A stretch of DNA of 64,000 nucleotides. Origin: Bacteroidota bacterium. GTDB lineage: Bacteria > Bacteroidota > Bacteroidia > Bacteroidales > JACABE01. Location of the stretch: positions 4,294-68,293 of the forward strand of contig JACABE010000021.1 in assembly GCA_013377005.1 (NCBI GenBank), given 5' to 3'. This document shows, piece after piece, positions 11,463-39,586 of the stretch; the first letter of the stretch is position 1, and every line of letters begins with the position of its first letter. A program made the position numbers and the translations under genes. The notes under the pieces were generated by a model. That model did no database searches and was not told the DNA's origin. It was given only the letters and a program-made list of their open reading frames with translations.

Positions 11463-12498
11463 AGTTTATTATTTGTTTTTCAAACTTGTCTTTATCTTTT
11501 TTATGAAATTTAACCTCAATGGGAAGATAAAAGAGGGGCAAATTTACAAAAAAATTCATTAATGGAGTGCCATTTATTCTCATCGCATCTTTCTCTGTAG
11601 TCACTATTATTTTGTTTTTTGAGAATATGCTTTCGAACATCTCCTTGATTTTCAACATATCTTTTGGCTGATATTGATAATGATCGCGGAATTTAATAGT
11701 TTCAACGGTGTCAGCAATAGATTTCAATTGATCTTCAAGTGGATATGGGTTGGCAATTCCGGCAAACATAAGGATAGTAGAAAATTTCTCAGCGGCTATT
11801 TTTTCTGCAAAAGCATTCATTGGAATTAAATTCCCATAATCAATATAAGAATAATATACGTGTTGTCCATGTTGGATTTTCATATCTTCTTCCATGGATT
11901 TGCATGTGATAGGAGAAATTACTCGAGGACACTTCGTTACAACAATAATGTCGGCTCGCTTCATGCCACTTCTGGATTCTCGCAATGTACCACTTGGGAG
12001 TATATAATCATGCGAAAAAGGCTTGTAGTAATCTGTTAGCAAAATCGATAATCCTGCTTTAACATACCTGTGTTGAAAAGCATCATCTAACAATACAACT
12101 TTTGTTTCCGGATTCTTTTCTAGTATTTTAGCAATTCCTCTTTTCCTTTTTTCGTCTAAAGCTACACAAATTTCAGGGAATTTTTTTCTGTATTGCAAAG
12201 GTTCATCACCAGCAGTTTCTGAGGTTGCAACTTCATCAACCAATAAAAAACCCTTTGTTTTTCTGCCATATCCACGACTTAAAGTGGAAATATTAAAATC
12301 TTTTCGTAATAAGTTTATTAAGTATTCAATATGAGGTGTTTTGCCTGTTCCGCCTACGCTTAAATTCCCAACTGAAATTACAGGAATAGCAAAAGATTTT
12401 GATTTTAAAATTTTAAAATCAAACATTTTATTTCTTACATATACAATTAATCCGTAAAGAACTGCAAGTGGAAGTAAAAGTAAACCTGTAATATTCAT
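11434..12498 (-). CDS. lpxK: Tetraacyldisaccharide 4'-kinase
   Basis: P-loop VGNLSVGGTGKTP, then LSRGYGRK and DDAFQH. The 3' end overlaps the PNP start by 29 nt. Confidence 0.9.
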   Translation of the reverse strand: MNITGLLLLPLAVLYGLIVYVRNKMFDFKILKSKSFAIPVISVGNLSVGGTGKTPHIEYLINLLRKDFNISTLSRGYGRKTKGFLLVDEVATSETAGDEPLQYRKKFPEICVALDEKRKRGIAKILEKNPETKVVLLDDAFQHRYVKAGLSILLTDYYKPFSHDYILPSGTLRESRSGMKRADIIVVTKCPRVISPITCKSMEEDMKIQHGQHVYYSYIDYGNLIPMNAFAEKIAAEKFSTILMFAGIANPYPLEDQLKSIADTVETIKFRDHYQYQPKDMLKIKEMFESIFSKNKIIVTTEKDAMRINGTPLMNFFVNLPLFYLPIEVKFHKKDKDKFEKQIINYVRKNKTNH

Positions 12499-24730: not shown

Positions 24731-26869
24731 TTATAGATTTTGTTTGTAATATTCATAGATTTTTCGAAATAAATGAGTACGATCTATGCCACTAACATTA
24801 TGTTCATGAGTTGGATAGATAAAGTAATCCACTTGTTTGCCCAAATCAATACATTTTCTCAGAAAAGAAGAACTGTGTTGCGGAACAACAGTATTATCAA
24901 TACCTCCTTGAATTATTAGCAGCTTTCCCTCTAATTTGTCGACATAATTAAGTAAAGAGGCATTTTTATAACCTTCAGGGTTTTGTTCAGGTGTGTCCAT
25001 ATAACGTTCGCCATACATTACTTCATACCATTTCCAATCAATAACCGGGCCGCCGGCAGTAGCTACCTTAAACACACCAGGGTTTTTCAATTTCATCGAA
25101 ATTGTCATAAAGCCACCATAGCTCCATCCATCTACACCCAAACGACTGGAATCCACGTAGCTGAGAGATTTCAAATAAGCAACACCTTCCATCTGATCGG
25201 CAACTTCCAGAGTTCCGCAATTACGATGAATGGCGCTTTCGAAAGCAAAGCCTCTATTGGCAGAACCACGATTGTCCATCGTAAATACCACATATCCTTG
25301 TTGAGCCAGAAAGTTAAAAAATAAGTTAGCTCCTCCTAACCATGAATTAGTAACTAATTGTGCATGAGGTCCACCATAAACATAAATAATGACAGGATAT
25401 TTTTTAGTAGCATCAAAATCAGAAGGTTTAATTAAACGACAATATAAGTCGGTGCCATCTTTGGCTTTAATCGTAAGCATTTGTGTTTCACCTAAGTTGT
25501 ATTCTTTTAAAGGATTTTTATCTTCCATGATGGTTTGTATTGCTTTACCTTCAGCATTAATAACCATAGTTTTCCGTGCAATTTCGGTATTACTGAATAT
25601 ATCAATAATATAATTGCCATTTTTGTCAATAATTGGACTATGAGTACCTTTTATTGTAGTAACAAGTTTAATTTCAGAAGATTTAATATCAACAACATAA
25701 ATATCATTATCCAATGGAGTTTCTTTTGTGGCTGAAATAAAAACTTTATTACCTTTGGCATCAAATCCTTCAACGTCTTTCACCATCCAATTACCTTTGG
25801 TAAGTTGTTTAATAAGTTTTCCATCTGTATTATACAGATATAAGTGATTGTATCCATCTCTTTCACTCAACCATAGAAATTCATTAGGATCTGATTTCAG
25901 GAAAAACAATCCATTTTCTGGTTCTACATATTTATCATTTTTTTCTTCAAACAAAGTGCTTATAAATTCTCCATTTGTAGCATTGTATTTATTTATTTTC
26001 AAATGGTTTTGATCTCGGTTTAATACAGCAATATAAATACTTTTTTCATCAGGACTCCAGCTAATGTTGGTAAGGTATTGTTCAGCAGGTTCACCTGTTT
26101 TCAGAAAAATTGTTTTTTGTGTAATAGGATCAAAAACGCCAACAGTAACATGATGGCTTTTCATTCCTGCCATTGGATACTTAATGCTTTTTAATTCTGC
26201 AACACGAGGCTCAATATCTACCAATGGATAATCGGTAACCATGGTTTCATCCATACGATAATAAGCCAATAAATTACCTTTAGGTGACCAAAAAGTTCCT
26301 TTTTTGATACCAAATTCATTGCGATGAACGCTTTGGCCATTTACAATCCCTTTGTCTTTATCGTCGGTTACTGTTATTTCAGTACCTCTGTATGAAATAT
26401 AAAGGTTGTTGTCAATAGTATAGGCAATATTATAAGTATTGGGTTCAATATCTGTATTTTCTGCTTTTTCCGGGTATTTATTCAACTCAGAAACTTGTTT
26501 TTTTGCAATATCAAAATTAAAAAGTTTACTACTGCTACTAAAGGTAAAATTGGTTTTATTTATCCAATTGATAGCAGGAAATTTTTTTACTTCCTTTTCG
26601 GTAATTGCTTTTAAACCCTGATTAATAGCTTCGATACCAAGGATAGTATCTTTTGTCTCTGTTTTTATGTTACCTTTCACTAATTTATTATTGACAATCC
26701 ATGTGTAATTGCCACTTTCGTCCATCCATTGCAGATTGTTAAGCATAGAAGGATACAATTTGCGATTCGTAATCAATTCATCCAGTTTTAATTGTTTGGT
26801 TTGAGCAGATAAAAAGCTTGTGGCAAACATTAAAAATGTCAATACCCATAATTTATTGAAGTGTTTCAT
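24731..26869 (-). CDS. Dipeptidyl-peptidase IV (S9B serine peptidase)
   Basis: Signal peptide, a DPP-IV N-terminal propeller, and a catalytic hydrolase domain with GVDGWSYGGFM (Ser nucleophile), GGIDNTV and HEHN. Confidence 0.9.
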   Translation of the reverse strand: MKHFNKLWVLTFLMFATSFLSAQTKQLKLDELITNRKLYPSMLNNLQWMDESGNYTWIVNNKLVKGNIKTETKDTILGIEAINQGLKAITEKEVKKFPAINWINKTNFTFSSSSKLFNFDIAKKQVSELNKYPEKAENTDIEPNTYNIAYTIDNNLYISYRGTEITVTDDKDKGIVNGQSVHRNEFGIKKGTFWSPKGNLLAYYRMDETMVTDYPLVDIEPRVAELKSIKYPMAGMKSHHVTVGVFDPITQKTIFLKTGEPAEQYLTNISWSPDEKSIYIAVLNRDQNHLKINKYNATNGEFISTLFEEKNDKYVEPENGLFFLKSDPNEFLWLSERDGYNHLYLYNTDGKLIKQLTKGNWMVKDVEGFDAKGNKVFISATKETPLDNDIYVVDIKSSEIKLVTTIKGTHSPIIDKNGNYIIDIFSNTEIARKTMVINAEGKAIQTIMEDKNPLKEYNLGETQMLTIKAKDGTDLYCRLIKPSDFDATKKYPVIIYVYGGPHAQLVTNSWLGGANLFFNFLAQQGYVVFTMDNRGSANRGFAFESAIHRNCGTLEVADQMEGVAYLKSLSYVDSSRLGVDGWSYGGFMTISMKLKNPGVFKVATAGGPVIDWKWYEVMYGERYMDTPEQNPEGYKNASLLNYVDKLEGKLLIIQGGIDNTVVPQHSSSFLRKCIDLGKQVDYFIYPTHEHNVSGIDRTHLFRKIYEYYKQNL

Positions 26870-27045
26870 ATATTAATTAGAATTAAAATCAGACGGCTAA
26901 AATAAAGAAAATTTGGCTAAGCAGAATCAGGAAACGAAATTATTCGATGAAAGTAATGTTTTTGCCGATGAAATTTCAAGACAATTTCTTAGTTTTGTTT
27001 GAGTTTAATTTATTTGACGAACCTATAACGATTATACGTTCTTAA

Positions 27046-27732
27046 TTAAAAAGAGAAAGAGTAACTTAATCCAGTAACAAAATAATTGTAAGGATCTTTC
27101 TGATGATATTCATTCTGAATGAGATAATATAATTCAAAAGACTTGCGCTTGTTTATTTTATACTCGGCTCCTATACAGTATCTCATTTTGGTTATGTCAA
27201 AGAATTGAGTGTGCTTTTGGGACGGAGACAAAGAATTATAAGATTCAAGATAAAGATAAGGTTTGATTCTTTTCGTGAAGTTATATTTTACTTGTACTTT
27301 ATTGAGCCATTGATAATCAGGTATCATTCCTTTGACAGAGGTTAAGATGTCTTTATACTCCATTTCAGCACGGGTTCTTAGCTGAAAAGTAAATAAGTAA
27401 TACGATTTTTTGAATGATACATCGAGATTAAAACGATGTCTGATAGAGTAAAAATCTTCATTTTTACGTTTTGAAAAATATCGATATCCTCCTGAAAGCA
27501 CCCAGGTTTTATTGAGTTTATAATCCATTCCGATTTCGGAATATGCAGTTCCTGTTTCTGATAAGTTTTCGCTGAATCTAAGCCCACCTTCTATATAGGC
27601 AGTAATATTACTATTAAATTTATGATCAATTTTTACATCTGTCCATAGTTGAGCATCGTTGGTTTGTGCAAATACTTTATAAGCACTAAATATAATGGTA
27701 ATGATTATAAAAAAGATTTTTAACTTACTCAT
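27046..27732 (-). CDS. DUF2490-like outer-membrane beta-barrel protein
   Basis: Signal peptide (VFAQ), alternating-hydrophobic beta strands, an aromatic C-terminal residue (SYSFSF) and WTDVKIDHKF...GGLRF. ATG at 27732 preferred over TTG at 27735. Confidence 0.5.
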   Translation of the reverse strand: MSKLKIFFIIITIIFSAYKVFAQTNDAQLWTDVKIDHKFNSNITAYIEGGLRFSENLSETGTAYSEIGMDYKLNKTWVLSGGYRYFSKRKNEDFYSIRHRFNLDVSFKKSYYLFTFQLRTRAEMEYKDILTSVKGMIPDYQWLNKVQVKYNFTKRIKPYLYLESYNSLSPSQKHTQFFDITKMRYCIGAEYKINKRKSFELYYLIQNEYHQKDPYNYFVTGLSYSFSF

Positions 27733-27749
27733 CAAAAGATTTTTTCTAT

Positions 27750-28541
27750 TTAAAATTGGGTTTCAGTAATTGTATTTATATGATTATCTGAATAATAGTA
27801 AACATTAATTGAGGCTGTATCTTTCAAAAAATCCATTTTGTTTACTGATACTCTATGAATATTTAAGCCAGTTCTTTCTTTAAGGTCTTCAATAAGTTTA
27901 CTGTAATTTTCAGCTTTAATAAATTCAATTTTTTCGTATTGAATCTGTCGATATGACTCGTGTTTAAAAATAATATTGCCATCGAGTATAAGAGTTGAAA
28001 GAATAAGAATACCATTAATAATTCCCAGTTCATAATATTCGAGTTGAATAGCACTAAGTAAACCAATAGCAATAACAATAAAAAGGTAGGTCATGTCTTT
28101 TACTGAGATACCTTCGGTTCGATAACGCAGCATTGAGAAAACGGCAAACAGTCCGAATGCTGCCCCCATTGACATCTTGACCTGATTGAGTAAAAACGTC
28201 AATAAGAAAATAGAGATATTAAAGGTGAAATAAGTAAAAAAAAGTTCTTTGTTACGGCAGTTTCTAAAGTAGATGAAAATAATAATAGTTAGAACCGTGA
28301 GGATATCTATCAACAAATCAATATAAAATGATTCGGTAATTTGGAGTTCTTTATTCTTTTTTTTCTTTTTCTTTTCTTTTAACTCTGAGTTATCTGAATT
28401 TTCATTATTATCATTTTGTTGTTGAAGTATTTCTGTCGCTTTCTGTGGTGACAAATCCTGAGTTTGTGCTTGAGTTGAAGAAAAAGGTATCCAGCTCAGG
28501 GAAATAATAAAAATGAAAATACTTAATTTAGTAAAGTTCAT
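27750..28541 (-). CDS. DUF4956-like integral membrane protein
   Basis: Signal/anchor, an acidic-then-polylysine linker (ELKEKKKKKKNKE), four or five TM helices and a soluble C-terminal domain. It overlaps the VTC gene by 14 nt, which is the usual VTC/DUF4956 pairing. Confidence 0.5.
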   Translation of the reverse strand: MNFTKLSIFIFIISLSWIPFSSTQAQTQDLSPQKATEILQQQNDNNENSDNSELKEKKKKKKNKELQITESFYIDLLIDILTVLTIIIFIYFRNCRNKELFFTYFTFNISIFLLTFLLNQVKMSMGAAFGLFAVFSMLRYRTEGISVKDMTYLFIVIAIGLLSAIQLEYYELGIINGILILSTLILDGNIIFKHESYRQIQYEKIEFIKAENYSKLIEDLKERTGLNIHRVSVNKMDFLKDTASINVYYYSDNHINTITETQF

Positions 28542-29313
28542 GATTAATTTTTTTAAGGGTTAATAGTTTTGGTTTGAAATTGTTTTGTTTTACGTTCTGG
28601 TACAGATTAATAACTCCTAAGCAATATTTACTAATCGAAAGTTCTTTTATTGCATAAGATTTAATTATTTCTGTAAAAGCTGATTTACACCTTTTCTCTT
28701 GCTTAAGTTCGGCTATTACAATATTACTCATGTATTTTGTAGCATTATCATTTTTAAAATGAAGATTAAGATCAAGTGTTAAACGTTCTGTCTGAGTTTT
28801 ATTTACTAAAGTAATACGCGCATAATTTGCCCATAATTTAGGTTTTAAATCAGCATCATTGATAAGAGCATTATTATGATAGAATGCCAATGATTTTTTA
28901 TTAATCTGTGGTGAATCTTCAATGATTTTTAAGCGAGTTTTAAAAGTGATATCCTTATTATTTTTGTTTTTTATTTCAAAAAAATGGAGGTCCGACTGCA
29001 CATAGGTTCTGTAACGAACTTTACTACGGTTTCCTTTACCACATCGATGATGGTTGTAAAATAAAAAATCATCGGTATCATAATATAGTGTATGATAGTC
29101 TGTAATGTTGTGGCCATTAACATTCAACACACGATAATTCAGAGCCAGCTTTTGCAAAATTTCAGGGAATAATTCAAGATTGAATACAAATTTAGTATCC
29201 ATCCTGCTCATCAGTTGTACATTGTCCATTTCTGTCAATGTAATCTGATCGAAGCCTGATAAAATACTTCCATATTCATTCATCGCGAATTGACTATCGT
29301 TTTGTATAGACAT
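28528..29313 (-). CDS. VTC-domain protein (triphosphate-tunnel, polyphosphate-polymerase-like)
   Basis: 261 aa, cytoplasmic. The strands RMDTKF, YHTLYYDT, KVRYRTY, FFEIK and IAELK have the alternating charged beta-strand pattern of the VTC/CYTH tunnel fold. Confidence 0.55.
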   Translation of the reverse strand: MSIQNDSQFAMNEYGSILSGFDQITLTEMDNVQLMSRMDTKFVFNLELFPEILQKLALNYRVLNVNGHNITDYHTLYYDTDDFLFYNHHRCGKGNRSKVRYRTYVQSDLHFFEIKNKNNKDITFKTRLKIIEDSPQINKKSLAFYHNNALINDADLKPKLWANYARITLVNKTQTERLTLDLNLHFKNDNATKYMSNIVIAELKQEKRCKSAFTEIIKSYAIKELSISKYCLGVINLYQNVKQNNFKPKLLTLKKINHELY

Positions 29314-29776
29314 ATTTCTTTACAGATATCAGTTTTTTATTGCCATCAAAAATCTTTTTTTCGACTTTAAAACCTTTAGCATCATAAGTTGTATAACTTT
29401 GTTTAAGAATGTTTCCGCTACCATCGTAATCAATTTCACCTATTTTTTCGTCGTTGGTGTTATATATATATGAAGTTTTGGAGATAAGTTTCCCTGTTGC
29501 ATCATATACAGTTTCTTCAATTTTATTTTTGTTAGCACTATAGGTGTGTTTTTCAGTCGTTTTAATTGCACCATCTTTGTTATAATCTATTTTTTCAATT
29601 GCATTCCCATTTTTATCATATGCGGTATACGAATCTTTTATCTCTTTACTATCCGCTGATTTAGTATTATATACCGTTTCTGAGGTAATTTTGTTTTCCC
29701 GTATTTCTTTTTTGCTTTGTGCAAATACGCTGGTATGCAGGTATAACAAAATGAATATTAAATTTAAAATTTTCAT
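29294..29776 (-). CDS. Small secreted protein made of YD-like repeats
   Basis: Signal peptide (VFAQ), then about six repeats of the form Y.YD..G..I.K..Y (YTAYDKNGNAIEKIDY, VYDATGKLISKTSY, DYDGSGNILKQSY, TYDAKGFKVEKKIF). Confidence 0.45.
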   Translation of the reverse strand: MKILNLIFILLYLHTSVFAQSKKEIRENKITSETVYNTKSADSKEIKDSYTAYDKNGNAIEKIDYNKDGAIKTTEKHTYSANKNKIEETVYDATGKLISKTSYIYNTNDEKIGEIDYDGSGNILKQSYTTYDAKGFKVEKKIFDGNKKLISVKKYVYTKR

Positions 29777-29811
29777 GTCTTTAGAAGTATTTAATTTTTA
29801 TTATGTTATTG

Positions 29812-30231
29812 TTAATTTTGAGGTGTGTCTGCAATCACTAAATCTTTTGTAGTAACAGTTGCGTCATTTTCGGAAATAGTAACATCTTCAATAACGGCAA
29901 ATTGCCCGGATGGATTCGTTAAAGTTGTGTCTAAAGAAAAAGTATAGACTTTATATTTGCCTTTACGCAGATATTTAAACTCAAAGGTTCCACCTTCATT
30001 TGTTCGTTGTTTATCGCCATAAGCAACATTGTCGCCATAACAGATATAAACATATTTATTTGGGGCATAACATTCACCTAAAAAACTGGTAAAGGTTTTG
30101 TTATAATATCTGGCATATACTTTACCTTGAATAGAAGAGGTTCCACCTTCTCCGGCATCTTTTGAGCATGATATATTGGTTAACAAAAGAATAATTGTGC
30201 TAAGTGTTAACCACTTTTTTTGAATGTTCAT
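29812..30231 (-). CDS. Small lipoprotein with a carboxypeptidase-regulatory-like beta-sandwich
   Basis: Lipobox NISC. IQGKVYA...TNEGGTFEFKYLRKGKYKVYTF fits the CarboxypepD_reg pattern. Confidence 0.45.
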   Translation of the reverse strand: MNIQKKWLTLSTIILLLTNISCSKDAGEGGTSSIQGKVYARYYNKTFTSFLGECYAPNKYVYICYGDNVAYGDKQRTNEGGTFEFKYLRKGKYKVYTFSLDTTLTNPSGQFAVIEDVTISENDATVTTKDLVIADTPQN

Positions 30232-30251
30232 ATTGTGATTTTTTATATGGT

Positions 30252-32543
30252 TTACTGTTTGATTATCTTTTTAATTTCACTGTTATTGCCCCAACTTGCT
30301 TTTAAAAAATAGACACCTTTTGCAAAACTGCTTAGATCTATTGTATTATAAGAGGATGTGGTTGCTGAATTAAAATCAAATTGCGTGCTTATAACAGATT
30401 GTGATAAAGAATTAAATAATTCAATTTTTACTGTTACGTTTTGAGCATTCACTTCAAAATTTAGCTCACTACTTGTTGGATTAGGATAGACCCACAGAAG
30501 CTCATTTTCTGATGTTGGTAAAAAGTTATAAGATGAAAATGAAGGTTTCATTACCGTAAAACTACCTGTTCCGTTTGGATAACGCCCAAAACTTAAATTT
30601 ACAGGTAGTTGGGCATAAGATATTGCATCAATTTCATGTCCATTTTGATAAGTAATATATAGGTTTCCGTTGGCAGAGGGTAATGAAAAATTTATATTCA
30701 CACTATCATTTGCAAATGAATTATTTAAACCCAATATCATATATTTTCTTGAAGGAATAATAGTATCTGGTAGCTTCCACTGAAGACGATTTGAGCTATC
30801 GTTTGACAAAAAAAGATTACATAGTAATATATTTTCATTCGTATTGTTGAAGAGTTCAATCCAACTTCCTTGTTCTAATGTTGTAATCCCATTATTATTC
30901 GATTTTATTTCATTAATAACTACATCGCCTTTAATAAGCTGAGGTTGGATTGAGTAGAATTCATATTCAGCTCGTTCTGGAGAAAAACTACCTGTACTAT
31001 CATTTTCAGCCCAAATATAATATTGTAAAACTTTTCCTTCCGACACTATTTTTGCACCATAAATTCCATCCCCTGCACTTTCATCGTGATGGTTTCCATC
31101 GTCATACATTTCTATGGATGTAAATGGAGCTTTGCTATGATTTCGATATGAAAGTAATGTTGCTGATGAATTTGAAATTTGTGCAGAAACCCAAACCTCA
31201 GAATTTTGCTCAACTACTGTAGGTTGATGTTTTACGTCAGTAATAATAGGATAATTTGAAAATCCCACATAAGATGATAAATAGGATAAACGTGCATCCA
31301 TAAGACTTTTTAGTCCTGGTATTTTTCCAGATGTCGGACCTGCATCTACTGTAAGATTGTTTTTATAATCTGAGTAAGTGTAAAATTTATTAGTATCAAG
31401 GTAAACAGCAGAATCAATGATATTTTGGTATTGTGTGGCGAGATTAAAATACTCATTGTTCTCCAGATTTTCTTTTACAATAGTTCTAAGATGAGCCAGA
31501 TACATTTTTTGATAACGTGGAATAACAAAAAGTTTCTTCATCAGAGGACGAGGAGTATAGGAATTATAATAAAGATGCTGTAATGGATCTAATTTCCCAA
31601 TTTTGTCAATGGTAAGACTTAACGAAATTCCATCAGTATTTCTGAAACTGCCAAAAGACATATTTAAATCCCATGGAATGGTGTTAAACCTATTGTAATC
31701 GTCTTTGTAGAGGTAATAATTTTGCGAGTAACCAATATAGCTGTCAAGATTAAGTATTGCATAATTAAAAGCGTGCATCCACAATGCTCTGTCAATGTTC
31801 AATACTTCTGAGATATGTGTAGTATCAATATTTAAAACATAGATAAAATTAAACAAATCTTTCCAACCGTAGTAATTCGATTCGAGTTTGTAATAAGGAA
31901 TATAGGCAGAGAAATCAGTTCCGTGTGTATAGGCAAGATTAGCATTTTGACCAAACGGATATTGTAATACTGCAGGACTACCTTTAAAGAAACTATTTCC
32001 TGATGATTTGAAGAATTTTTGAGTAAAATTGTCATCCACTGATTCAACATTTGTATAAAGTCCGATATAATAATCATTCACATATACTTTGGCAAAATTA
32101 GCCTGAGATGCCGGCATGTATTTCTGTGCTATTTTATAGGATACCACTTCGCGAACAAAAGAGGGATCGTATATCACGTTTGCCAATCTTAGTTTTGTAT
32201 TTCCTTGATAATTAAGTTTTTTAAATGTATAATTAAGATCAATACTGAATGGATTTTTCATGCGACTTACATCATAAGAACTATAACCTTTATACCGAAG
32301 ACCTGATTTTGGAAAAGATTTCCCGTTTACGGTAACGTCACAGACCAAGCGTCCCTCTTCGCCAAAATTAACAAAAAGGCTATCAAGTATTTCTCTCCAG
32401 TTGGACTCCTTAATGCTGATTTTTATTTCCTGCATCTCATTGATATCAAATAAACTGCTTTGAGAATAAAGTGAATGATTCCAGCTAAATAAAAGCAGTA
32501 TTAATGAGATTAGTAATAATCGCAAACAGGATTTTAAATTCAT
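30252..32543 (-). CDS. CotH-family atypical kinase with a lamin-tail-like domain and a T9SS C-terminal sorting domain
   Basis: The CotH core has NYYLYKDDYNRFNTIPWDLNMSFG and LWMHAFNYAILNLDSY. The LTD-like segment is VVINEIKSNN...WIELFN. The C-terminus VYPNPTSSELNF...GVYFLKA...KIIKQ is a type-A T9SS CTD. Confidence 0.7.
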   Translation of the reverse strand: MNLKSCLRLLLISLILLLFSWNHSLYSQSSLFDINEMQEIKISIKESNWREILDSLFVNFGEEGRLVCDVTVNGKSFPKSGLRYKGYSSYDVSRMKNPFSIDLNYTFKKLNYQGNTKLRLANVIYDPSFVREVVSYKIAQKYMPASQANFAKVYVNDYYIGLYTNVESVDDNFTQKFFKSSGNSFFKGSPAVLQYPFGQNANLAYTHGTDFSAYIPYYKLESNYYGWKDLFNFIYVLNIDTTHISEVLNIDRALWMHAFNYAILNLDSYIGYSQNYYLYKDDYNRFNTIPWDLNMSFGSFRNTDGISLSLTIDKIGKLDPLQHLYYNSYTPRPLMKKLFVIPRYQKMYLAHLRTIVKENLENNEYFNLATQYQNIIDSAVYLDTNKFYTYSDYKNNLTVDAGPTSGKIPGLKSLMDARLSYLSSYVGFSNYPIITDVKHQPTVVEQNSEVWVSAQISNSSATLLSYRNHSKAPFTSIEMYDDGNHHDESAGDGIYGAKIVSEGKVLQYYIWAENDSTGSFSPERAEYEFYSIQPQLIKGDVVINEIKSNNNGITTLEQGSWIELFNNTNENILLCNLFLSNDSSNRLQWKLPDTIIPSRKYMILGLNNSFANDSVNINFSLPSANGNLYITYQNGHEIDAISYAQLPVNLSFGRYPNGTGSFTVMKPSFSSYNFLPTSENELLWVYPNPTSSELNFEVNAQNVTVKIELFNSLSQSVISTQFDFNSATTSSYNTIDLSSFAKGVYFLKASWGNNSEIKKIIKQ

Positions 32544-32565
32544 ATTATTTATAGTAATTATATGA

Positions 32566-33819
32566 TTATCTTACAATTATTTTTTTAGTAATTGAGTTGG
32601 ATGAATCGGAAAGTTGTATAAAGTACAATCCAGATAATAAATTTGCTATATCAATTTTGTTTTCAGAAGACTTTAACATTTTACTGAGTATAACTTTTCC
32701 TTGTGCATCCATAATTTTTAAATAATATGAATGATTGTAACTGTTGATTATTAGAATATCTTGTGCAGGATTTGGGTAAATATCAACAAAAGAGTTTGTT
32801 GGAATAGATTCTATCCCAACAGTACCATTAAAATAAGAGACACCACCACCAGTGGCTATCCATGGCTTTTGAAACTTATCTAAGGCTATGCTTGTAACTT
32901 GTGTATTCACCAAGCCATCGGTAACGGAATATGAAACCCAGTTCGTTCCATCGAATCTACTAATACCACCATCAAAATTATAATCAGCAAATACGCCAAC
33001 CCATATATTTCCATCAACATCAGTTTTCATATCACGAACAAAATTGTTGTACAAACCATCATTTGCTCTATAGTTTTTAACCCAAACATTAGAAGTGTTA
33101 AGTTTAGTGATACCATAAAAAGTGCCAATATATCGGTTGTTATTAAGGTCAAAAGCAATTGCGAAAGTATTGTCATCGAGTAAACTATCTGTTGTTAATT
33201 TTGTAAAATTTGTAAAAGTTGTTCCGTGGAGCTTTGAAACACCTCCCATTTGGGTGCAAAACCACATATCACCAGTTAAGTCAGAAGAAATATAAGAAAT
33301 AGAGTTCGTCGAAATGCCATTACTAGTAGTATAATTGGTGAATGTTCCCTGATTGAATTTGGAAACCCCACTTTGAGTTGCAAACCAAACACTTCCATCT
33401 GGAGCTCCATAAATATAATTTACATTATTATCTATAAGACCTTGTGTTGTAGTAAAATTAGTCCATGAAGTTCCATTAAACTTACTAACGCCATTATTTG
33501 TTCCTACCCATACGTTATTGCTTTTATCTGTGGCAATACAAACTGCATAATTATCTATTAAACCATTAGTAGTTGTATATGAAGTCCATGTTACATCGTT
33601 ATATTTTGCAACACCAGAAGTAGTAGAAACCCATTTTACATTATTAGTATCTATTGCAATTCCTGTTACAAAGTTATCAATAAGCCCATTTGTTGTTGTA
33701 TAATTAATAAAATTCTGACTTTTCCCATTCGAATAAGAGAAAAGCAAAATAAAAATCATTGAAACCATTAAAAAATGATTCTTTGATACATTTTTAATTT
33801 TTAACGCTGATTTTTTCAT
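32566..33819 (-). CDS. Beta-propeller protein (two-component-regulator propeller repeats) with a T9SS CTD
   Basis: At least 7 repeats of TT.NGLIDN.V..IA.D..NN.WVGT..GVSKFNG, then IYPNPAQDILI...GLYFIQL...KKIIVR. Confidence 0.7.
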   Translation of the reverse strand: MKKSALKIKNVSKNHFLMVSMIFILLFSYSNGKSQNFINYTTTNGLIDNFVTGIAIDTNNVKWVSTTSGVAKYNDVTWTSYTTTNGLIDNYAVCIATDKSNNVWVGTNNGVSKFNGTSWTNFTTTQGLIDNNVNYIYGAPDGSVWFATQSGVSKFNQGTFTNYTTSNGISTNSISYISSDLTGDMWFCTQMGGVSKLHGTTFTNFTKLTTDSLLDDNTFAIAFDLNNNRYIGTFYGITKLNTSNVWVKNYRANDGLYNNFVRDMKTDVDGNIWVGVFADYNFDGGISRFDGTNWVSYSVTDGLVNTQVTSIALDKFQKPWIATGGGVSYFNGTVGIESIPTNSFVDIYPNPAQDILIINSYNHSYYLKIMDAQGKVILSKMLKSSENKIDIANLLSGLYFIQLSDSSNSITKKIIVR

Positions 33820-33837
33820 TTTTTCTATTTTTAAAAA

Positions 33838-36009
33838 TTATTTATTCAATACAATTTTACTTTGTTGAACCAATTTACCATCAACCTTTATCATAATAAA
33901 ATAAATCCCGTTGCTTAAATCAGAAAGATTCAGGGTTGATTGGTTGCTGTTTTTCAGAACCTCTTTTCCATAAATATTGATAATTTCGGTTTCAAAGCTA
34001 TTGATTGAAGCGGGTATTGATAAATTTATAATGCTTTGGGTTGGGTTTGGATAAATTATAATTTTCTGAGTTAAACTGTTATTTTCAGGAATACCCACTG
34101 TAGGCGTATAAGCAGATGAAATAGAAGTACAACCATTAGCATCTGTAACCTGAACTTGATATGATCCAGCTTGGGGAGGAGTATACGTATTTCCTGTAGC
34201 ACCTTGAATAATGTTGTTGTTGAAATACCATTGATTTCCAGAGCTGGCACTGGATGTCATTGTATTTCCTGTTTGTGAAATTGTTGGTGTTACAGGTGAC
34301 GAATATAATATAACAGATGTTGTATTGGTAGCAATATCTGAACCACTGGTTACAGTAACTGTATAACTTGTATTAGAAGTTGGAACTACTGTAGGATTTT
34401 GTAAAGTGGAAGTAAATCCAGCAGGAGATGATGTCCATTGGTAGGTATAGGAAGTTCCTCCACTTGGAGTAGAATTTAATTGAACTGTTGACCCTGGACA
34501 AACATTTACAGGCATTGCCGTTGCACTTACAGTTAAAGTGCTACTTCCTGTAATATTTACAGTAACAGAGGCTGTATCGGAACATCCAATAGCAGTATTG
34601 GTTATAATTACAGTATAAGTAGCGTTAGAAGTTGGAGAAATACTAGGATTTTGTTGCGTTGATGTAAAACCGGAAGTTGAAGTCCAAGCATAAGAATAAG
34701 TGGGACTGGATTCTGTAACCGATGTTGCTGAGGAACTTAAGGTAACTGCTGTGCCCGAAGTTACTAGAGTAGAAGAAGCACTTGCCAAAGCAATTGGAGC
34801 TCTTACGTAACATAATTCATATCTATAAGCATGAACAGATTTTGCATTTGAAATAGTTTGTAAAGTTGTTCCGTTTGGACTTACCTCGAATACACTACCA
34901 CCAGGATTACATACTAATTCATTTCCATTTCCTAATTGTTGCGAATTTCCCATATCACTTGCAGTAAATGAAGGAATTGTGGGGTTAATAACTGTTGTAG
35001 GTCCAACAATTGAACCAGCTGTATAGGTGTAATTATATCCATTATAGGGAGGATTCCAAATAGCAACTTTTACATTTCCACCGCTATTATTATTATAGAC
35101 ACACATATAATTTGGATATAATGGATTTGTAGATGGGATCCAATGTGCATCATGAATTACGTTAAATCCACTATTGTTAGCTGTTGAAGAAAGTCCATAT
35201 GTTGCAGGATTCCCCCAACGATATAGGAAATCACCACCCTTTCCGGAATTTCCTCCAGTATGTGTTGCAGCTTGAGCTGTTGTAGTACTATGGTCAATTA
35301 CATAAATTTCGCTCAATGCATGAGAGCTAATCATAATTTGGTCTAATTGAGGATTGTAATCAATACCGTTCATGTGAAACCAATCTTGTTTAATAGAATA
35401 ATTTACGTTCATTCTTTCTGGATGTTCAGACACATTGGTAACATAAGTTGATGTTACACTCGAATATACGCTTTGGCACAAATGATCCCACAAATGCCAT
35501 TCCCAAACTATGGTTCCAGTTGTAGCACCTGTAGGTTTAACTTCTATAATTTTTTCTGACCAAACAGTTATGGTTGATGAACAGCCTACGGTAGTTGGAG
35601 ATGCACTTTTTGTCTCATAACAAACCAATAAGACGTTACCATTTGGTAATGCACAAACATCGTGGTGCATTTGTGTTGAGGCATCTGATACTGCATATTC
35701 CCAAACAGTAGTTCCTGCCCAATTGACTTTTCTCACTTTACCTGTAATACCACCTTGACCAATACTTCCCGATTGATATTTGACCGTTTGAAGTATTGTG
35801 TCCCCTGGCAGAAGATAAGCAGAATATGCAGTAGATGAGCTTAAAGCCCATGTTTTATATGTAGTTCCTGTAGTATCAATCAACTTTGCCTGAGTCGTGT
35901 TTTGAGTTGCGTAAAAGGTATACATTCCCCATTTTTGCGACATTACTTTTGTGCAATTTATCGAAATAGCCCAAAGTATTATAAATGATAAAATCGTTTC
36001 TTTTCTCAT
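33838..36009 (-). CDS. Arylsulfotransferase (ASST)-like beta-propeller protein with three Ig-like repeats and a T9SS CTD
   Basis: MHHDVCALPNGNVLL, WEWHLWDH, FHMNGIDYNP and VIHDAHW resemble the ASST family. The C-terminus IYPNPTQSIINL...GIYFIMI...KIVLNK is a T9SS CTD. Confidence 0.5.
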   Translation of the reverse strand: MRKETILSFIILWAISINCTKVMSQKWGMYTFYATQNTTQAKLIDTTGTTYKTWALSSSTAYSAYLLPGDTILQTVKYQSGSIGQGGITGKVRKVNWAGTTVWEYAVSDASTQMHHDVCALPNGNVLLVCYETKSASPTTVGCSSTITVWSEKIIEVKPTGATTGTIVWEWHLWDHLCQSVYSSVTSTYVTNVSEHPERMNVNYSIKQDWFHMNGIDYNPQLDQIMISSHALSEIYVIDHSTTTAQAATHTGGNSGKGGDFLYRWGNPATYGLSSTANNSGFNVIHDAHWIPSTNPLYPNYMCVYNNNSGGNVKVAIWNPPYNGYNYTYTAGSIVGPTTVINPTIPSFTASDMGNSQQLGNGNELVCNPGGSVFEVSPNGTTLQTISNAKSVHAYRYELCYVRAPIALASASSTLVTSGTAVTLSSSATSVTESSPTYSYAWTSTSGFTSTQQNPSISPTSNATYTVIITNTAIGCSDTASVTVNITGSSTLTVSATAMPVNVCPGSTVQLNSTPSGGTSYTYQWTSSPAGFTSTLQNPTVVPTSNTSYTVTVTSGSDIATNTTSVILYSSPVTPTISQTGNTMTSSASSGNQWYFNNNIIQGATGNTYTPPQAGSYQVQVTDANGCTSISSAYTPTVGIPENNSLTQKIIIYPNPTQSIINLSIPASINSFETEIINIYGKEVLKNSNQSTLNLSDLSNGIYFIMIKVDGKLVQQSKIVLNK
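34110..34800 (-). repeat. Three tandem Ig-like modules of about 75 aa inside the ASST-like gene (approximate bounds)
   Basis: Repeats share SSTL...YSYAWTSTSGFTSTQQNPSISPTSNATYTVIITN / YTYQWTSSPAGFTSTLQNPTVVPTSNTSYTVTVTS / GNQWYFNN...GNTYTPPQAGSYQVQVTD. Confidence 0.5.
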
Positions 36010-36126
36010 ACTAAAATTTTTATTTTTTTATATCAGTTTATTTTTAAAAGTAATTCTAACTTATTTTTTAACAATATTAAAAAAGTGATATGTTTATACA
36101 AAACTTATTAGGGGTTTAGTGTTTTT

Positions 36127-36158
36127 TTATCGGTAATTCTGTATAATTTATCGATAAA
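36127..36158. promoter_or_regulatory. Two TTATCGnTAA palindromic sites 21 bp apart upstream of the T9SS-cargo/CotH/VTC operon
   Basis: TTATCGGTAA lies at 36127-36136 and TTATCGATAA at 36148-36157, within the 12-bp perfect palindrome TTTATCGATAAA (36147-36158). They are 118-149 nt upstream of the ATG at 36009. Confidence 0.25.
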
Positions 36159-36623
36159 CTATACTTAATAAAATAATTGAATTTTAAATAAATTAAAAAA
36201 TCATTTTCTTCTAAATTTTCTTAAATGTTTTTTTAAATTTAATCTTTTATATATTTTACGATGCAATATTAATATAAACTTAATGTTGGAATGTTATAAC
36301 ATTATGAAAATATGTTATGAAATTTTAATAGAATAAATAATCTATCTTATTTATTCTTTTGTGAAAACTTTTCTGTTTTTTTGCTAAATTACATTGTGTC
36401 GCTTAATATATTTTGGAGATACATTGCGGGAGAGTGTAAATTATTAAGTAAAATAAACTTTTGATGTTTAATAACTATTTGTTTTCAAGTTCGAATAATA
36501 ATTTTAGTTGAAATAATTAAAGAACATAATAACTTATTTCCTGCTTAAAAGAAAGAGGTTAATATATATCCTAAAAAAACAAATACAATAACTACTGTTT
36601 ATATTTAACCAACTATATACAAT

Positions 36624-36651
36624 AAAAAAAGGACTGTTTCCAGTCCTTTTT
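36624..36651 (-). terminator. Intrinsic terminator after the M16 peptidase pair
   Basis: GGACTG-TTTC-CAGTCC (36631-36646) is flanked by A7 and T5, and the T-tract is on the minus strand. Confidence 0.65.
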
Positions 36652-36673
36652 CATTATAGAGTTTTCATTGATA

Positions 36674-39586
36674 TTAGTATCCGAAGATATCTTCCATTTT
36701 TAAGTATTTCACTTTTCCGTATTTTTTCAATACATTAAAGTCAATTTCCTTTTTATCACCTAATACCAAGTAAGTGTGTTTCTTATCTTTAATATATTTG
36801 GTGTGGAATGTTTTTACATCATTAAAAGTCATATTTGGGACTTTAGCATATACATCCTTACGAAGATCATAATCAACGCCCAATTTTTTAGCACTTTCGT
36901 ATTGCCATAAAATATCAGATTTGGTTATTCTATCGGTTCTCATTTTCTGAATAATACCATTTTTAGCTAGAGTAAATGCTTTTTCAGATTCCGGCATATT
37001 ATTTAACAAACTGGTTAAAGCAGCCAAAGCATCATTTAATTTGTCATTCTGAGTAGCAATATAAGAAATCCCCATATAAGAATTATCTTTTTTATTAGGA
37101 CTTTGATACATTGACATAGCAGTATAAGCTAAAGAACGTGATTCTCTTAATTCTTGAAATACGATAGAATTCATACTTCCGCCAAAATATTCATTGAATA
37201 AATTTACATCAGCAGCTATATTTTTATCATATAAACCACCTTTATTTAAAAGTAACATTTGTGATTGCTTAGCATCAAAATCAACATGATAAACAATATC
37301 TTTTTTTGTTTCTAGTTCAACAAATTTTACTTCAGCAGGAACTGTTTTTAATTGTGCAGGTGTTTTGTGATAAGTATTCAGAATCTGAGTTAATTCTTCT
37401 GGTTTCTGGCTTCCGTAATACATAATATGATGTTGATATGAAAGTAAACCTTTAATAATAGTAACAAGTTCTTCTGGCTTTAATGATTTCAATTCAGCTT
37501 CGGTTAGAATATTAGTCATTGGTGATTTAGCACCGTATTTTCCATAGTTAACCATCGCACCAAAAGCTCTTTGTGGATTTAATTTGGCATCGGTTCTTTT
37601 TTTCATGATGTCTTTAATTACATTATCAAAAGCTTCCTGATCGGGTTTACAATCAGCTAAAACTTCTTCAAATAATTGCAACGCTTTTGACATATTTTCG
37701 GTTAAACCGCTTAAACTTACATAAACCTGATCCGCTGCAGCAGATACATTAAAAGAGCAACCTAATTTATAATACTCTTCTTTTAATTGATCATCAGTAT
37801 ATTTTGAAGTTCCTAAGAATTTTAAATAATTAGTTGCAACACTTAACTTTTTATCGTTATTACTTCCCATTTCAAAAACATAGAAAATATCAAACGTTTT
37901 ATTTTCAGTGTTTTCTTTATAAGTAACAGGTATATTGTTTTTAACAGTAAAGAATTGTAAATCTTTTTTGAAATCCAAAAATACAGGTTCAATTTCAGCA
38001 GGTTTATTTGCCTGTATCATTTTTAAGAAATCAGATTCAACATCGCGGTTGATTTTAATAGGCGTAATTTTAGGTTTTTTTACTTTTTTGATAGATTCGT
38101 CTTTACCTTTTCTTTTGTAAACAACTACATAATTGTCTTTTAAATTAGTTTTAGCAAAATCAACAATTTCCTGTTTGGTAATTTTTGATAATTTATCAAT
38201 ATTTTCAACAACATCTTTCCATGATTCGTTTTGGATAAAAGCATCAACAAATGCCATAGCTCTGTTGCTGTTACTTTCATATTCTTTAATTCTGCGAAGT
38301 TTTAAATCATTGATGATAGCAGGAATTAACCAATCAGGAAATTCACCTTTTTTTACCAATTCTATCTGAGAAATTAATAAATCTCTAACTTCATCTAAAG
38401 TTTGACCTGCTTTTGGTTTTCCTGTTAGCATTAATGAAGAATAATCATGCATGATATTAGGGCTTGACCCTGCACTCATTACTTTTTGTTTCTGATTCAG
38501 GTTTAAATCAATCAAACCGGCAGTACCATTGGTCAAAACCATATCAATCATAGTAATCATATCTGCTTCTCTTGAGCCACTTCCAGCAAAACGATAAGCC
38601 ATCATCATATTTTCCGCATCTGGACCAAATACTTCTTTTACAATAGGTTTTGTTATTGGTTGTTCTTGTCCAAAAGTAAATGGAGGAACTATAGAATTTT
38701 TCAATGCACCAAATTTGGAATCAATAACTTTGATTACATATTCAGGGTCAAAATCTCCTGACAAACAAATTGCAATATTATTTGGGACATAATATTTAGC
38801 AAAAAATTCTCTGATATTTTTCATCGAAGGATTTTTAATATGTTCCTGAGTTCCAATAGTAGTTTGGGTTCCGTAAGGATGATTTTGGAATAAACCTTCC
38901 AAAACTGCAGTATAAACTTTACGTCCATCATTGGTTAAGGTCATATTTTTTTCTTCATAGATGGTTTCCAATTCCGTGTGGAATAAGCGTAATACTGGAT
39001 CACTAAAACGATTAGCCTGGATAGTTGCCCAATTATCTATTTGGTTGGAAGGAATATCATCAACAAAAACAGTTTCTTCTAAGGAAGTAAAAGCATTGGT
39101 TCCATCTGCTCCGATAGCCGACATTAATTTATCATATTCGTTTGGAATTGCATAAGTAGAGGCAATATAAGAAATACTGTCAATTATTCCATACATTTGT
39201 TTTCTTTGATTTTCATCTGTCATCAACCTATATATTTCAAATAAAGAATCAATTTTTGCAATATAAGGAGCTTCCATTTTCCAATCTTTTGAACCATATT
39301 TTGAAGTACCTTTAAACATCATGTGTTCAAAATAGTGAGCCAAACCTGTAGTTTCGTGGGGGTCATTTTTGCTGCCTGCTCTAACAGCAACATAGGTTTG
39401 AATACGTGGTGCGTCTTTGTAAACAGTCATATACACTTTTAGTCCGTTATCCAGTGTATAAATCCTAGCTTTCAAAGGATCACCGGGAACTGTTTCATAA
39501 GTGTACTGTTTCTGAGCATGTACATTTACAACAAAAAGCGAAATGCTGATTAAAGCAATTCCAATAAATTTTAATTTGTTTTTCAT
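36674..39586 (-). CDS. M16-family (insulinase/pitrilysin-like) zinc peptidase
   Basis: Signal peptide, the inverted zincin motif HYFEHMMFKGT and 970 aa with duplicated M16 halves. Confidence 0.85.
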   Translation of the reverse strand: MKNKLKFIGIALISISLFVVNVHAQKQYTYETVPGDPLKARIYTLDNGLKVYMTVYKDAPRIQTYVAVRAGSKNDPHETTGLAHYFEHMMFKGTSKYGSKDWKMEAPYIAKIDSLFEIYRLMTDENQRKQMYGIIDSISYIASTYAIPNEYDKLMSAIGADGTNAFTSLEETVFVDDIPSNQIDNWATIQANRFSDPVLRLFHTELETIYEEKNMTLTNDGRKVYTAVLEGLFQNHPYGTQTTIGTQEHIKNPSMKNIREFFAKYYVPNNIAICLSGDFDPEYVIKVIDSKFGALKNSIVPPFTFGQEQPITKPIVKEVFGPDAENMMMAYRFAGSGSREADMITMIDMVLTNGTAGLIDLNLNQKQKVMSAGSSPNIMHDYSSLMLTGKPKAGQTLDEVRDLLISQIELVKKGEFPDWLIPAIINDLKLRRIKEYESNSNRAMAFVDAFIQNESWKDVVENIDKLSKITKQEIVDFAKTNLKDNYVVVYKRKGKDESIKKVKKPKITPIKINRDVESDFLKMIQANKPAEIEPVFLDFKKDLQFFTVKNNIPVTYKENTENKTFDIFYVFEMGSNNDKKLSVATNYLKFLGTSKYTDDQLKEEYYKLGCSFNVSAAADQVYVSLSGLTENMSKALQLFEEVLADCKPDQEAFDNVIKDIMKKRTDAKLNPQRAFGAMVNYGKYGAKSPMTNILTEAELKSLKPEELVTIIKGLLSYQHHIMYYGSQKPEELTQILNTYHKTPAQLKTVPAEVKFVELETKKDIVYHVDFDAKQSQMLLLNKGGLYDKNIAADVNLFNEYFGGSMNSIVFQELRESRSLAYTAMSMYQSPNKKDNSYMGISYIATQNDKLNDALAALTSLLNNMPESEKAFTLAKNGIIQKMRTDRITKSDILWQYESAKKLGVDYDLRKDVYAKVPNMTFNDVKTFHTKYIKDKKHTYLVLGDKKEIDFNVLKKYGKVKYLKMEDIFGY

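Follow-up and report, generated by a model that had tools for sequence, protein, structure and literature searches.

This analysis concerns a block of eight genes on the minus strand of a 64,000-nt stretch of contig JACABE010000021.1 from a Bacteroidota bacterium (the whole stretch is called the window here). The block extends from position 27046 to 36009 and encodes a VTC-domain protein and a DUF4956 membrane protein together with three further proteins of the cell envelope and three large proteins predicted to be secreted, among them a CotH-family kinase. Its intergenic gaps lie between -20 and +35 nt. An earlier note, made from the letters of this DNA, had described the block as a candidate operon on the minus strand and had given the gaps, from the promoter-proximal end, as 18, 22, 20, 35, -20, -14 and 17 nt; the list of open reading frames (ORFs) reproduced the genes and these values exactly. 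The final gap is 17 nt with the ATG at 27732 as the start of gene 8, which then encodes 228 aa, the database-deposited form (P0241), and 14 nt with the TTG start at 27735 (229 aa).

The first three genes of the block code for the large proteins. Gene 1 (33838-36009, 723 aa) encodes an ASST-like beta-propeller with two PKD domains and a type A sorting domain of the type IX secretion system (T9SS), gene 2 (32566-33819, 417 aa) a Reg_prop-type beta-propeller with a T9SS sorting domain, and gene 3 (30252-32543, 763 aa) a CotH-family kinase that also carries a choice-of-anchor X motif, a lamin-tail domain (LTD) and a T9SS sorting domain. They are followed by gene 4 (29812-30231, 139 aa) for a small lipoprotein with a transthyretin-like (CarboxypepD_reg-like) beta-sandwich and by gene 5 (29294-29776, 160 aa) for a periplasmic, lysine-rich YD/RHS-like (MORN_2-like) repeat protein with a signal peptide. 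Gene 6 (28528-29313, 261 aa) encodes the VTC-domain protein, a cytoplasmic triphosphate tunnel metalloenzyme and predicted polyphosphate polymerase. Its stop is overlapped by 14 nt by the start of gene 7 (27750-28541, 263 aa), which encodes the DUF4956 inner-membrane protein. Gene 8 (27046-27735, 228-229 aa) codes for a DUF2490 outer-membrane beta-barrel of about 12 strands.

The family assignments of the earlier note, including those of VTC and DUF4956, were upheld by profile searches. The VTC protein matched PF09359 with 101.7 bits (cut-off 23; E 5.8e-29; profile positions 2-234 of 235), the DUF4956 protein PF16316 (E 4.8e-51), the CotH protein PF08757 (135 bits, E 5.2e-39) and the DUF2490 protein PF10677 (E 3.8e-24). 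The predicted compartments hold as well: the VTC protein is without a signal peptide, DUF4956 is a membrane protein, the lipoprotein carries its cysteine at position 22, the YD-like protein has a signal peptide, DUF2490 is a barrel, and three T9SS sorting domains are present. The three large proteins carry PF18962 and TIGR04183 above the cut-offs and have hydrophobic N-termini, as is characteristic of type A cargo of the T9SS.

VTC is the sole domain found in the 261-aa protein, which has neither an SPX domain nor the DUF202 transmembrane domain; it is therefore a relative of the catalytic domain and not a member of the eukaryotic complex architecture. Yeast Vtc4 needs K200, R264, R266, K281, Y359, R361, S457 and K458, plus E426 for Mn2+, and K458 is Ile or Leu in the inactive Vtc2 and Vtc3 (bioRxiv 10.1101/2023.01.27.525886). 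The Vtc4 triple mutant R264A/R266A/E426N is inactive (PMC9911596). In an alignment of 13 relatives with 48-100% identity, residues K41, R100, R102, K117, R166, R177, E202, S228 and K229 of the bacterial protein are invariant and Y164 is nearly so. The residue types and local spacings, with R100-x-R102 and K117 fifteen residues on, match those of Vtc4. A HMMER alignment to Vtc2 (3G3O) placed YxR on YTR, RxTxD on RVTID and S228-K229 on the SI pair of Vtc2, so that the lysine of the active subunit, the K458 equivalent, is retained. Because this alignment is weak overall (E 0.12), the mapping of the residues rests partly on motif spacing; Vtc2 was also the sole VTC match when the VTC profile was searched against PDB sequences, among which Vtc4 was not found even at E <=10. 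On these alignments the protein keeps all nine residues required in Vtc4, and conservation of the full catalytic set argues for a working polymerase.

The DUF4956 protein was aligned with its relatives from Bacteroidota (35 proteins, alignment A5), which share the invariant motif GAAFGLFAVFSMLRYRT. An AlphaFold2 model built from 35 sequences (mean pLDDT, the predicted local distance difference test, 69) shows in order a signal or anchor helix at the N-terminus, a disordered stretch of acidic residues, a poly-Lys tract, five transmembrane helices at residues 70-187 and a C-terminal domain with a beta-alpha-beta-beta unit at 195-250. The acidic stretch and the strongly conserved poly-Lys tract (KEKKKDKKK) occupy residues ~48-66 (window 28350-28400), between the N-terminal helix and the first transmembrane helix, in 35 of the 35 aligned proteins. 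In a fold search of the PDB, the tail of the model matched the ACT domains of aspartate kinases, weakly (E ~0.5). Since the basic loops RNCRNK and RYRTEG lie on one side of the membrane, the positive-inside rule would place the C-terminal domain in the cytoplasm and the poly-Lys tract in the periplasm; the ACT-like domain of the model would then face VTC. Five transmembrane helices followed by a cytoplasmic ACT-like domain correspond, at the level of the model, to the layout of MgtC-type proteins, and MgtC was not among the 25 commonest of the 59 families matched by the 35 relatives at E <=1. The poly-Lys tract could be a catcher of polyanions or a PASK-like site for lysine polyphosphorylation.

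Neither the 139-aa nor the 160-aa protein matched a family above threshold, and both were placed by family-wide scans. In the lipoprotein alignment (A3), C22 is invariant and S21 nearly invariant, and 22-24 of 30 relatives weakly match transthyretin-like CarboxypepD_reg or SdrD_B models. Additional lipoprotein-DUF2490 pairs occur in several loci, which suggests that these two proteins are partners. The YD-repeat protein consists of a signal peptide and lysine-rich repeats of ~22 residues (alignment A4); its relatives gave weak matches to RHS_repeat/YD (15 of 30) and MORN_2 (8 of 30), and its median isoelectric point (pI) is 9.14. The DUF2490 family is always basic, with pI values of 8.77-9.95 and a median of 9.55 in 74 sequences. 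The AlphaFold2 model of the DUF2490 protein has 11-12 strands (mean pLDDT 74) and is shallow because the homologue search gave just 10 proteins. The nearest barrels of similar size were NanC (TM-score 0.49/0.54), KdgM (0.45/0.57) and OmpG (~0.5), AlgE was also among the fold matches, and a profile search gave no sequence-level match to KdgM or NanC. The basic DUF2490 barrel, the YD-repeat protein and the poly-Lys tract of DUF4956 would suit a polyanionic cargo.

The CotH protein matched LTD and PF18962 in addition to its kinase family. Its full-length sequence alone gave no match in the PDB, and the profile of its family (A2) matched CotH of Bacillus cereus (5JD9) with E 1.6e-26. Residues D267 and D292/N294 are invariant (D267 and D292 in both alignments A2 and A8); in the profile alignment they fall on the NFDGF and WDYD motifs found in the B. 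cereus protein. After indels, D267 and D292 are spaced by 23 residues, as are D228 and D251 in Bacillus subtilis CotH. Mutation of these two B. subtilis aspartates inactivates the kinase (PMC7821199). Judged from these alignments, the CotH protein of the block keeps both catalytic aspartates. The ASST-like protein matched PF05935 with 71 bits (E 1e-19) over profile positions 21-268 of 374 only, besides PKD, PF18962 (2.8e-12) and TIGR04183. The motifs HHD, DWFH, IDHS and HD are invariant in its alignment (A9), with residues H115, H116, D117, H212, D239, H240, R264, H286 and D287. These residues could not be mapped to a characterised ASST because a solved ASST was reached neither by the sequence, which gave chance matches to haemagglutinin, nor by the A9 profile, which matched generic propellers and the sorting-domain structures 8GLK and 8GLJ. 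The Reg_prop protein matched PF07494 (1.6e-14) and PF18962 (2.5e-16) and, weakly, the propeller region of PorZ.

Conservation of the neighbourhood had been set beforehand in the earlier note as one of the tests of its claim. A lookup of the exact VTC sequence gave no record, and its relatives were reached by homology; the sequences deposited for a metagenome-assembled 'Bacteroidetes bacterium' genome include proteins identical to VTC, DUF4956 and DUF2490 of the window. The VTC protein was used to scan one genome per species, which yielded at least 588 relatives; the best 80, almost all from Bacteroidota, were examined. Where a locus of this analysis has to be named, it is given by a label of the form L001. 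ORFs were called in these 80 loci and searched with profiles of the window proteins, and partners were counted where the contig flank allowed it. The eight families were found in identical order at 18 other loci, with VTC proteins ~45-75% identical to that of the window; in L001-L003, where VTC is 69-75% identical, the same eight genes stand in the same order between different flanks. In the VTC-seeded set and a CotH-seeded set combined, the exact eight-gene order occurs at 18 loci and a contiguous five-gene core at 50. This conserved synteny makes the grouping of the eight genes more than chance.

The partners are not equally constant. DUF4956 adjoins VTC in 71 of 73 countable loci, the YD-repeat protein in 66 of 75, DUF2490 in 63 of 71 and the lipoprotein in 59 of 71, each of these core partners thus being found beside 83-97% of the VTC relatives. 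CotH adjoins VTC in 29 of 66 countable loci, the ASST-like protein in 13 of 50 and the Reg_prop protein in 9 of 59. Among the three added envelope parts the YD-repeat protein is the commonest companion of VTC-DUF4956, and the minimal conserved unit consists of the YD-repeat protein, VTC and DUF4956 (L004-L006). The CotH-seeded scan of metagenomes returned 80 relatives of 38-62% identity, nearly all flanked by ASST-like and Reg_prop genes, in the orders ASST-Reg_prop-CotH or ASST-CotH-Reg_prop(-CotH2). In about 14 of the 28 CotH loci with at least 8 kb of downstream sequence, the triad runs on into the VTC core. Since the two parts are joined in about half of the cases, whether one starts from VTC or from CotH, the block is made up of two modules: module A comprises the lipoprotein, the YD-repeat protein, VTC, DUF4956 and DUF2490, and module B the ASST-like, Reg_prop and CotH-LTD proteins. 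ASST and Reg_prop travel with CotH, not with VTC. The single eight-gene system proposed earlier therefore stands as far as the conserved order is concerned, but it is really a five-gene core plus a separate ASST/Reg_prop/CotH triad.

Several loci depart from this arrangement. On the metagenome contigs L099 and L154, lipoprotein(-YD)-DUF2490 comes after the CotH triad, and VTC and DUF4956 are missing; on the metagenome contig L123 the triad runs on into VTC-DUF4956, and the lipoprotein, the YD-repeat protein and DUF2490 are missing. In L013 (7814-9481), the place of CotH directly before YD-VTC-DUF4956 is taken by a secreted repeat protein of ~555 aa with a T9SS sorting domain, probably a propeller, whose units read W.D.R...DIYAQRI. 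The same variant occurs in L018, L032, L035, L043, L044, L046, L048, L050, L053 and L059, and in these loci the lipoprotein-DUF2490 pair is moved upstream. In Runella limosa DSM 17973 (L069), a tractable carrier, two CotH genes stand with those for the YD-repeat protein, VTC, DUF4956 and DUF2490. VTC-DUF4956 also appeared on an 8-kb contig labelled Candidatus Methanoperedens nitroreducens (L041) and a 13-kb contig labelled Akkermansia (L072), with 46-48% identity to Bacteroidota; these archaeal and verrucomicrobial contigs could reflect mis-binning or horizontal transfer.

Upstream of gene 1 lies an AT-rich leader or promoter region of 664 bp (36010-36673, minus strand). Its non-coding character, noted earlier, was confirmed: its only two ORFs, of 27 and 45 aa, are on the opposite strand and neither is credible, and a search of 26800-36800 against Rfam gave no match. 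Without an Rfam match and a credible small ORF, a riboswitch or leader peptide is unsupported. At its far end stands a strong hairpin resembling an intrinsic terminator (36625-36652, minus strand). Its 12-bp stem contains 4 G-C pairs, and a T run comes after it; its arms are 100% complementary over 11 nt (36626-36651), and it stands directly after the stop of the upstream M16 peptidase gene. This terminator-like hairpin would end the M16 gene and mark the 5' boundary of the transcription unit. Terminator-like sites in the region as a whole were at chance level (4 found versus 4.8 expected). The block itself has only two, both weak and both inside the coding sequence for the 417-aa protein, and the 176 bp that follow the last gene showed none.

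Parts of the leader are conserved. A stretch of about 90 nt has 79% identity to the sequence that precedes the first ASST gene of L001/L002, and a shorter one of 36 nt matches L007. An alignment of four upstream regions (A7: window, L001, L007 and L003) was used to delimit elements, all on the minus strand. Repeat block 1 (36292-36318), ATAACA-N15-ATAACA with unit starts 21 nt apart, can also be read as the inverted repeat ATAACAT-N9-ATGTTAT (I7) and is kept in the window, L001 and L007. A distal box, TTAATATTGCA (36262-36272), one mismatch from TAnnTTTG, is a candidate -7 element of Bacteroidota; it is conserved in the window and L001 and nearly so in L007. In repeat block 2 (36126-36155), ATCGATAAA-N12-ACCGATAAA, the units again start 21 nt apart, each is nearly palindromic (reported as inverted repeat I9), and many columns in both are invariant in the four upstream regions. 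A proximal TTAATATTG box (36071-36080), a further candidate -7 element ~61 nt upstream of the first ATG, has an ATTG core that is invariant in 4 of 4 sequences of A7. From known Bacteroidetes promoters a promoter role of both TTAATATTG-type boxes may be inferred. A sigma-70 scan and a count of TAnnTTTG stayed at or near chance everywhere, including the inside of the block, and located no promoter.

The two repeat blocks are candidate regulator-binding sites, with direct or inverted symmetry that could not be assigned. The 21-nt period agrees with the binding sites of LytTR regulators, which are 9-bp repeats with 12 bp between them. A LytS-type histidine kinase and a LytTR response regulator flank the module in ~15 of the 80 loci of the genome scan, including L003 (12346-14119) and L007 (~2.3-4 kb downstream of the VTC gene), which share the repeat blocks of the leader; the 64-kb window has no such pair. 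Control of the operon by a LytTR regulator via the 21-nt-period repeats may be taken as a lead rather than a result. In the Bacteroides-like contigs L004-L006 and L022, which stem from metagenome-assembled genomes and have the minimal YD-VTC-DUF4956 unit, a PqqD-like protein of 84 aa (11682-11936) is encoded between DUF4956 and the kinase/LytTR pair.

One explanation of the block would be that its genes are mere neighbours, with neither a function nor a transcript in common. Chance-level consensus promoter scans throughout, the inside of the block included, and the occurrence of each module on its own would agree with this. Against it stand the identical order on 18 other contigs at 45-75% VTC identity, the different flanks where these were checked (L001-L003), the gaps of -20 to +35 nt and the recurrence of the link CotH-VTC-DUF4956 in Deinococcota, Firmicutes and Actinobacteria. 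Synteny comes close to refuting this explanation, which we regard as highly improbable.

We propose tentatively, and at somewhat less than an even chance, that the eight genes are one regulated operon of two functionally linked modules, whose products would synthesise a phosphate polymer and deliver it to the cell surface. An operon is favoured by the small gaps, the terminator-like hairpin just before the leader, the conserved blocks upstream of gene 1 and the 18 other loci of identical order. The VTC enzyme would polymerise the terminal phosphate of nucleoside triphosphate into polyphosphate, as yeast Vtc4 does. It would dock on DUF4956, which would take the growing chain across the inner membrane, mirroring the coupling in the eukaryotic VTC complex; the yeast complex links synthesis with passage through the membrane by a positively charged route (PMC9911596). 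Two basic elements of the periplasm, the lysine-rich YD-repeat protein and the poly-Lys tract in DUF4956, would receive the polyanion, which would then exit via, or be held at, the basic 12-strand DUF2490 barrel paired with the lipoprotein. The T9SS would export the CotH kinase, the ASST-like propeller and the Reg_prop propeller to the cell surface, where the triad might act on the exported polymer by binding, using or modifying it, or might employ it in the phosphorylation of a surface protein or glycan. Here we infer polyphosphate as the product, its outward movement, the contacts between the proteins and the target of CotH. The idea of polymer export fits the conserved catalytic residues, the predicted topology and the basic character of the periplasmic and outer-membrane parts.

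Outside Bacteroidota, the gene pair occurs in Alphaproteobacteria. In Aminobacter (plasmid pANY103a, L168), Nitratireductor (pOM-1, L169) and Shinella (L171), DUF4956-VTC is followed by a gene for a protein annotated as 'esterase-like activity of phytase family', and in Nitratireductor an inorganic phosphate transporter gene stands between the two. These neighbours tie DUF4956-VTC to phosphate chemistry. An ECF (extracytoplasmic function) sigma/anti-sigma pair and an S8 peptidase were also observed near DUF4956-VTC in Aminobacter and Nitratireductor. The alphaproteobacterial loci bear on a second explanation, in which the block serves phosphate capture and storage in the envelope: DUF2490 would act as a porin selective for the uptake of anions, VTC-DUF4956 would build up polyphosphate as a phosphorus reserve at the inner membrane or in the periplasm, the polymer would be kept there by the YD-repeat protein and the lipoprotein, and the secreted enzymes would free or process phosphorylated extracellular substrates. 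The phytase-like and transporter neighbours agree with it, a basic barrel suits anion uptake as well as export, and yeast VTC is itself a storage system that fills the vacuole. A kinase such as CotH, however, would fit poorly with scavenging. Neither a phosphatase nor a PstS or Pho-type gene occurs in the operon or the scanned flanks (~12 kb upstream; downstream to the nearer end of the window), and CotH is joined to VTC-DUF4956 also in monoderms, which have neither a periplasm nor an outer-membrane barrel. We consider storage rather unlikely.

The grouping with CotH is known from the literature. Gram-positive pel operons are accompanied by accessory genes for CotH, a polyphosphate-polymerase-domain protein and DUF4956 (Whitfield et al. 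2020, PMC7112168). In Streptococcus intermedius (SIR_1592-1594), deletion of the CotH or the DUF4956 gene alters the Pel level and aggregation, and the authors found no such synteny outside pel loci (PMC12345266). CotH-VTC-DUF4956 are also adjacent in NELoc-2 of Clostridium perfringens (PMC2879425). On plasmid p_TS293_4 of Deinococcus taeanensis (L167, record 240069-242879), the CotH kinase, a protein with a polyphosphate-polymerase domain and DUF4956 are encoded in a row without pel genes. The Bacteroidota and Deinococcus loci show that the trio exists outside pel loci, counter to the published remark. In the literature searched, DUF2490 had a single mention, in an expression table of Bacteroides thetaiotaomicron, likewise a tractable organism, where the adjacent BT3498-99 correspond to DUF4956 and DUF2490; the five-gene core, its lipoprotein and YD-repeat families and the T9SS triad of ASST, Reg_prop and CotH had no description. 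The earlier note knew of no functional description of such a grouping. This appears to hold for the two-membrane version in Bacteroidota, but not for the cassette at Gram-positive pel loci, which has been published with its deletion effects.

Both cassettes place a secreted CotH, a cytoplasmic VTC-domain protein and DUF4956 with an ACT-like tail side by side. Unlike the pel cassette, which has DUF4832 or DGC-PDE (diguanylate cyclase-phosphodiesterase), the block is not contiguous with pelDEADAFG and none of its eight proteins is DUF4832; neither pel, other synthase, DUF4832 nor mobile-element genes were found among the scanned flanks. The block has four two-membrane additions: DUF4956 is extended at its N-terminus by the poly-Lys part, and the YD-repeat protein, the lipoprotein and the DUF2490 barrel are present as well. 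Its CotH is equipped with an LTD and a T9SS sorting domain and has the ASST-like and Reg_prop propellers as companions.

The pel connection suggests a third explanation, modification of a surface matrix or glycan. CotH would phosphorylate exopolysaccharide, the lipopolysaccharide anchor of T9SS cargo or a surface protein from ATP or another nucleotide, and VTC-DUF4956 would merely regulate, in the manner of MgtC, the ATP/phosphate balance or a synthase, with no polymer being exported. In the Gram-positive cassette attached to pel operons, deletions of CotH and DUF4956 shift the amount of Pel in opposite directions and deletion of VTC is not reported to do so; the five-helix and ACT-like layout of DUF4956 is that of MgtC-type proteins, and the LytTR pair flanks part of the genome-scan loci as given above. 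LytTR regulators often control matrix genes. Yet DUF4956 gave no MgtC-family sequence match, no polysaccharide synthase stands beside the operon, and the sole sugar-related neighbours, a GDP-mannose-dehydratase-like gene and a CpsB/CapC gene, are ~12-13 kb away. This explanation also leaves unaccounted for why the YD-repeat protein, the lipoprotein and the barrel are tied more tightly to VTC than CotH is, and the complete catalytic set of Vtc4 points to a working polymerase. Matrix modification without an exported polymer is therefore on the improbable side as well.

Several points weigh against the export of a phosphate polymer as proposed here. For the S. intermedius deletion of the VTC-domain gene no change in aggregation was reported (PMC12345266), and the literature searched yielded no experiment on any bacterial VTC-domain protein. 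DUF4956 shows no sequence relationship to the DUF202 channel of the eukaryotic VTC, and its membrane part matched no solved structure in the PDB fold search, so that a channel role is pure conjecture. DUF2490 resembles small porins at the fold level only (TM-score ~0.5, in a model from 10 sequences), and the charge bias of the envelope parts is weak evidence. Uptake and storage would account for the phosphate-transporter and phytase-like genes beside DUF4956-VTC in Alphaproteobacteria no less than export would. A VTC core within 8-10 kb is lacking in about half of the CotH triads, and CotH is absent from more than half of the cores; the modules occur separately and therefore neither strictly needs the other in cis. 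As to the last step of the pathway, CotH of B. cereus was crystallised with AMP bound, and the use of polyphosphate by a CotH would be hypothetical. A narrower version of the export proposal, in which polyphosphate exported via DUF4956, the YD-repeat protein, the lipoprotein and DUF2490 serves the T9SS-anchored CotH as a phosphoryl donor, with help from the propellers, and thus allows extracellular phosphorylation independent of ATP, is in our judgement distinctly unlikely.

The proposed export pathway has counterparts in other known systems. With the eukaryotic VTC complex (Vtc4/Vtc3 or Vtc2/Vtc1) it shares the PF09359 family, equivalents of the nine catalytic residues and the obligatory pairing of a catalytic subunit with a membrane protein. 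Unlike that complex, it has no SPX or DUF202, its catalytic protein is a separate one of 261 aa, its membrane partner is the unrelated DUF4956, and the target compartment would be the periplasm or the cell surface instead of the vacuole. The CotH-CotB/CotG module that phosphorylates the Bacillus spore coat likewise has an atypical CotH kinase with the catalytic aspartates kept and an outer cell layer as its site of action. The Bacillus enzyme is active in the cytoplasm of the mother cell, with access to ATP. The CotH described here differs in its signal peptide and T9SS sorting domain and belongs to a non-sporulating phylum, and a Ser/Lys-rich substrate of the CotB or CotG type is not encoded in the operon. 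The export systems for alginate (Alg8/44-AlgK-AlgE), Pel, PNAG (poly-N-acetylglucosamine) and cellulose follow the same logic as the proposed pathway: a single operon encodes the polymerase-translocase of the inner membrane, a scaffold in the periplasm, a lipoprotein and an outer-membrane barrel, and secreted enzymes modify the polymer. This likeness is architectural only and not one of homology: unlike synthase-dependent export, the block has no glycosyltransferase and no TPR scaffold, its predicted polymer is inorganic and its barrel has ~12 strands.

Bacterial polyphosphate is attributed to PPK1 and PPK2. If the narrower, ATP-independent version of the export proposal were true, it would be the first case of a bacterial VTC polymerase-translocase and of an outer-membrane channel for polyphosphate, and it would explain how secreted CotH-family kinases work where no ATP is present. 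The operon offers testable routes to a second, eukaryote-like polyphosphate synthase in bacteria and to the passage of a highly charged inorganic polymer across two membranes, as well as a candidate phosphoryl source for secreted CotH-family kinases, which are also tied to the biofilm matrix of streptococci and to virulence loci of C. perfringens. Candidate roles follow for the widespread DUF4956 and DUF2490 and for two small families that are in no database, and close VTC relatives are encoded in at least 588 species-representative genomes.

The surroundings of the block in the window are of a different nature. Downstream it is followed by a DPP-IV/S9 peptidase gene, and upstream lie two M16 peptidase genes. 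The farther flanks contain FtsX, PurH, MreBC, PdxJ, DnaX, ribonucleotide reductase and cytochrome c assembly genes. An origin of the block from a mobile element or a defence island was considered and rejected because the surroundings are housekeeping genes (PdxJ, MreBC, PurH, DnaX, ribonucleotide reductase). Genes of the T9SS machinery did not turn up in the window, in which no search was aimed at them. On the plus strand, at 47138-50410, an ORF of 1090 aa without a Pfam match at E <=1e-5 follows two genes for proteins resembling outer-membrane barrels (OMP_b-brl and DUF3575).

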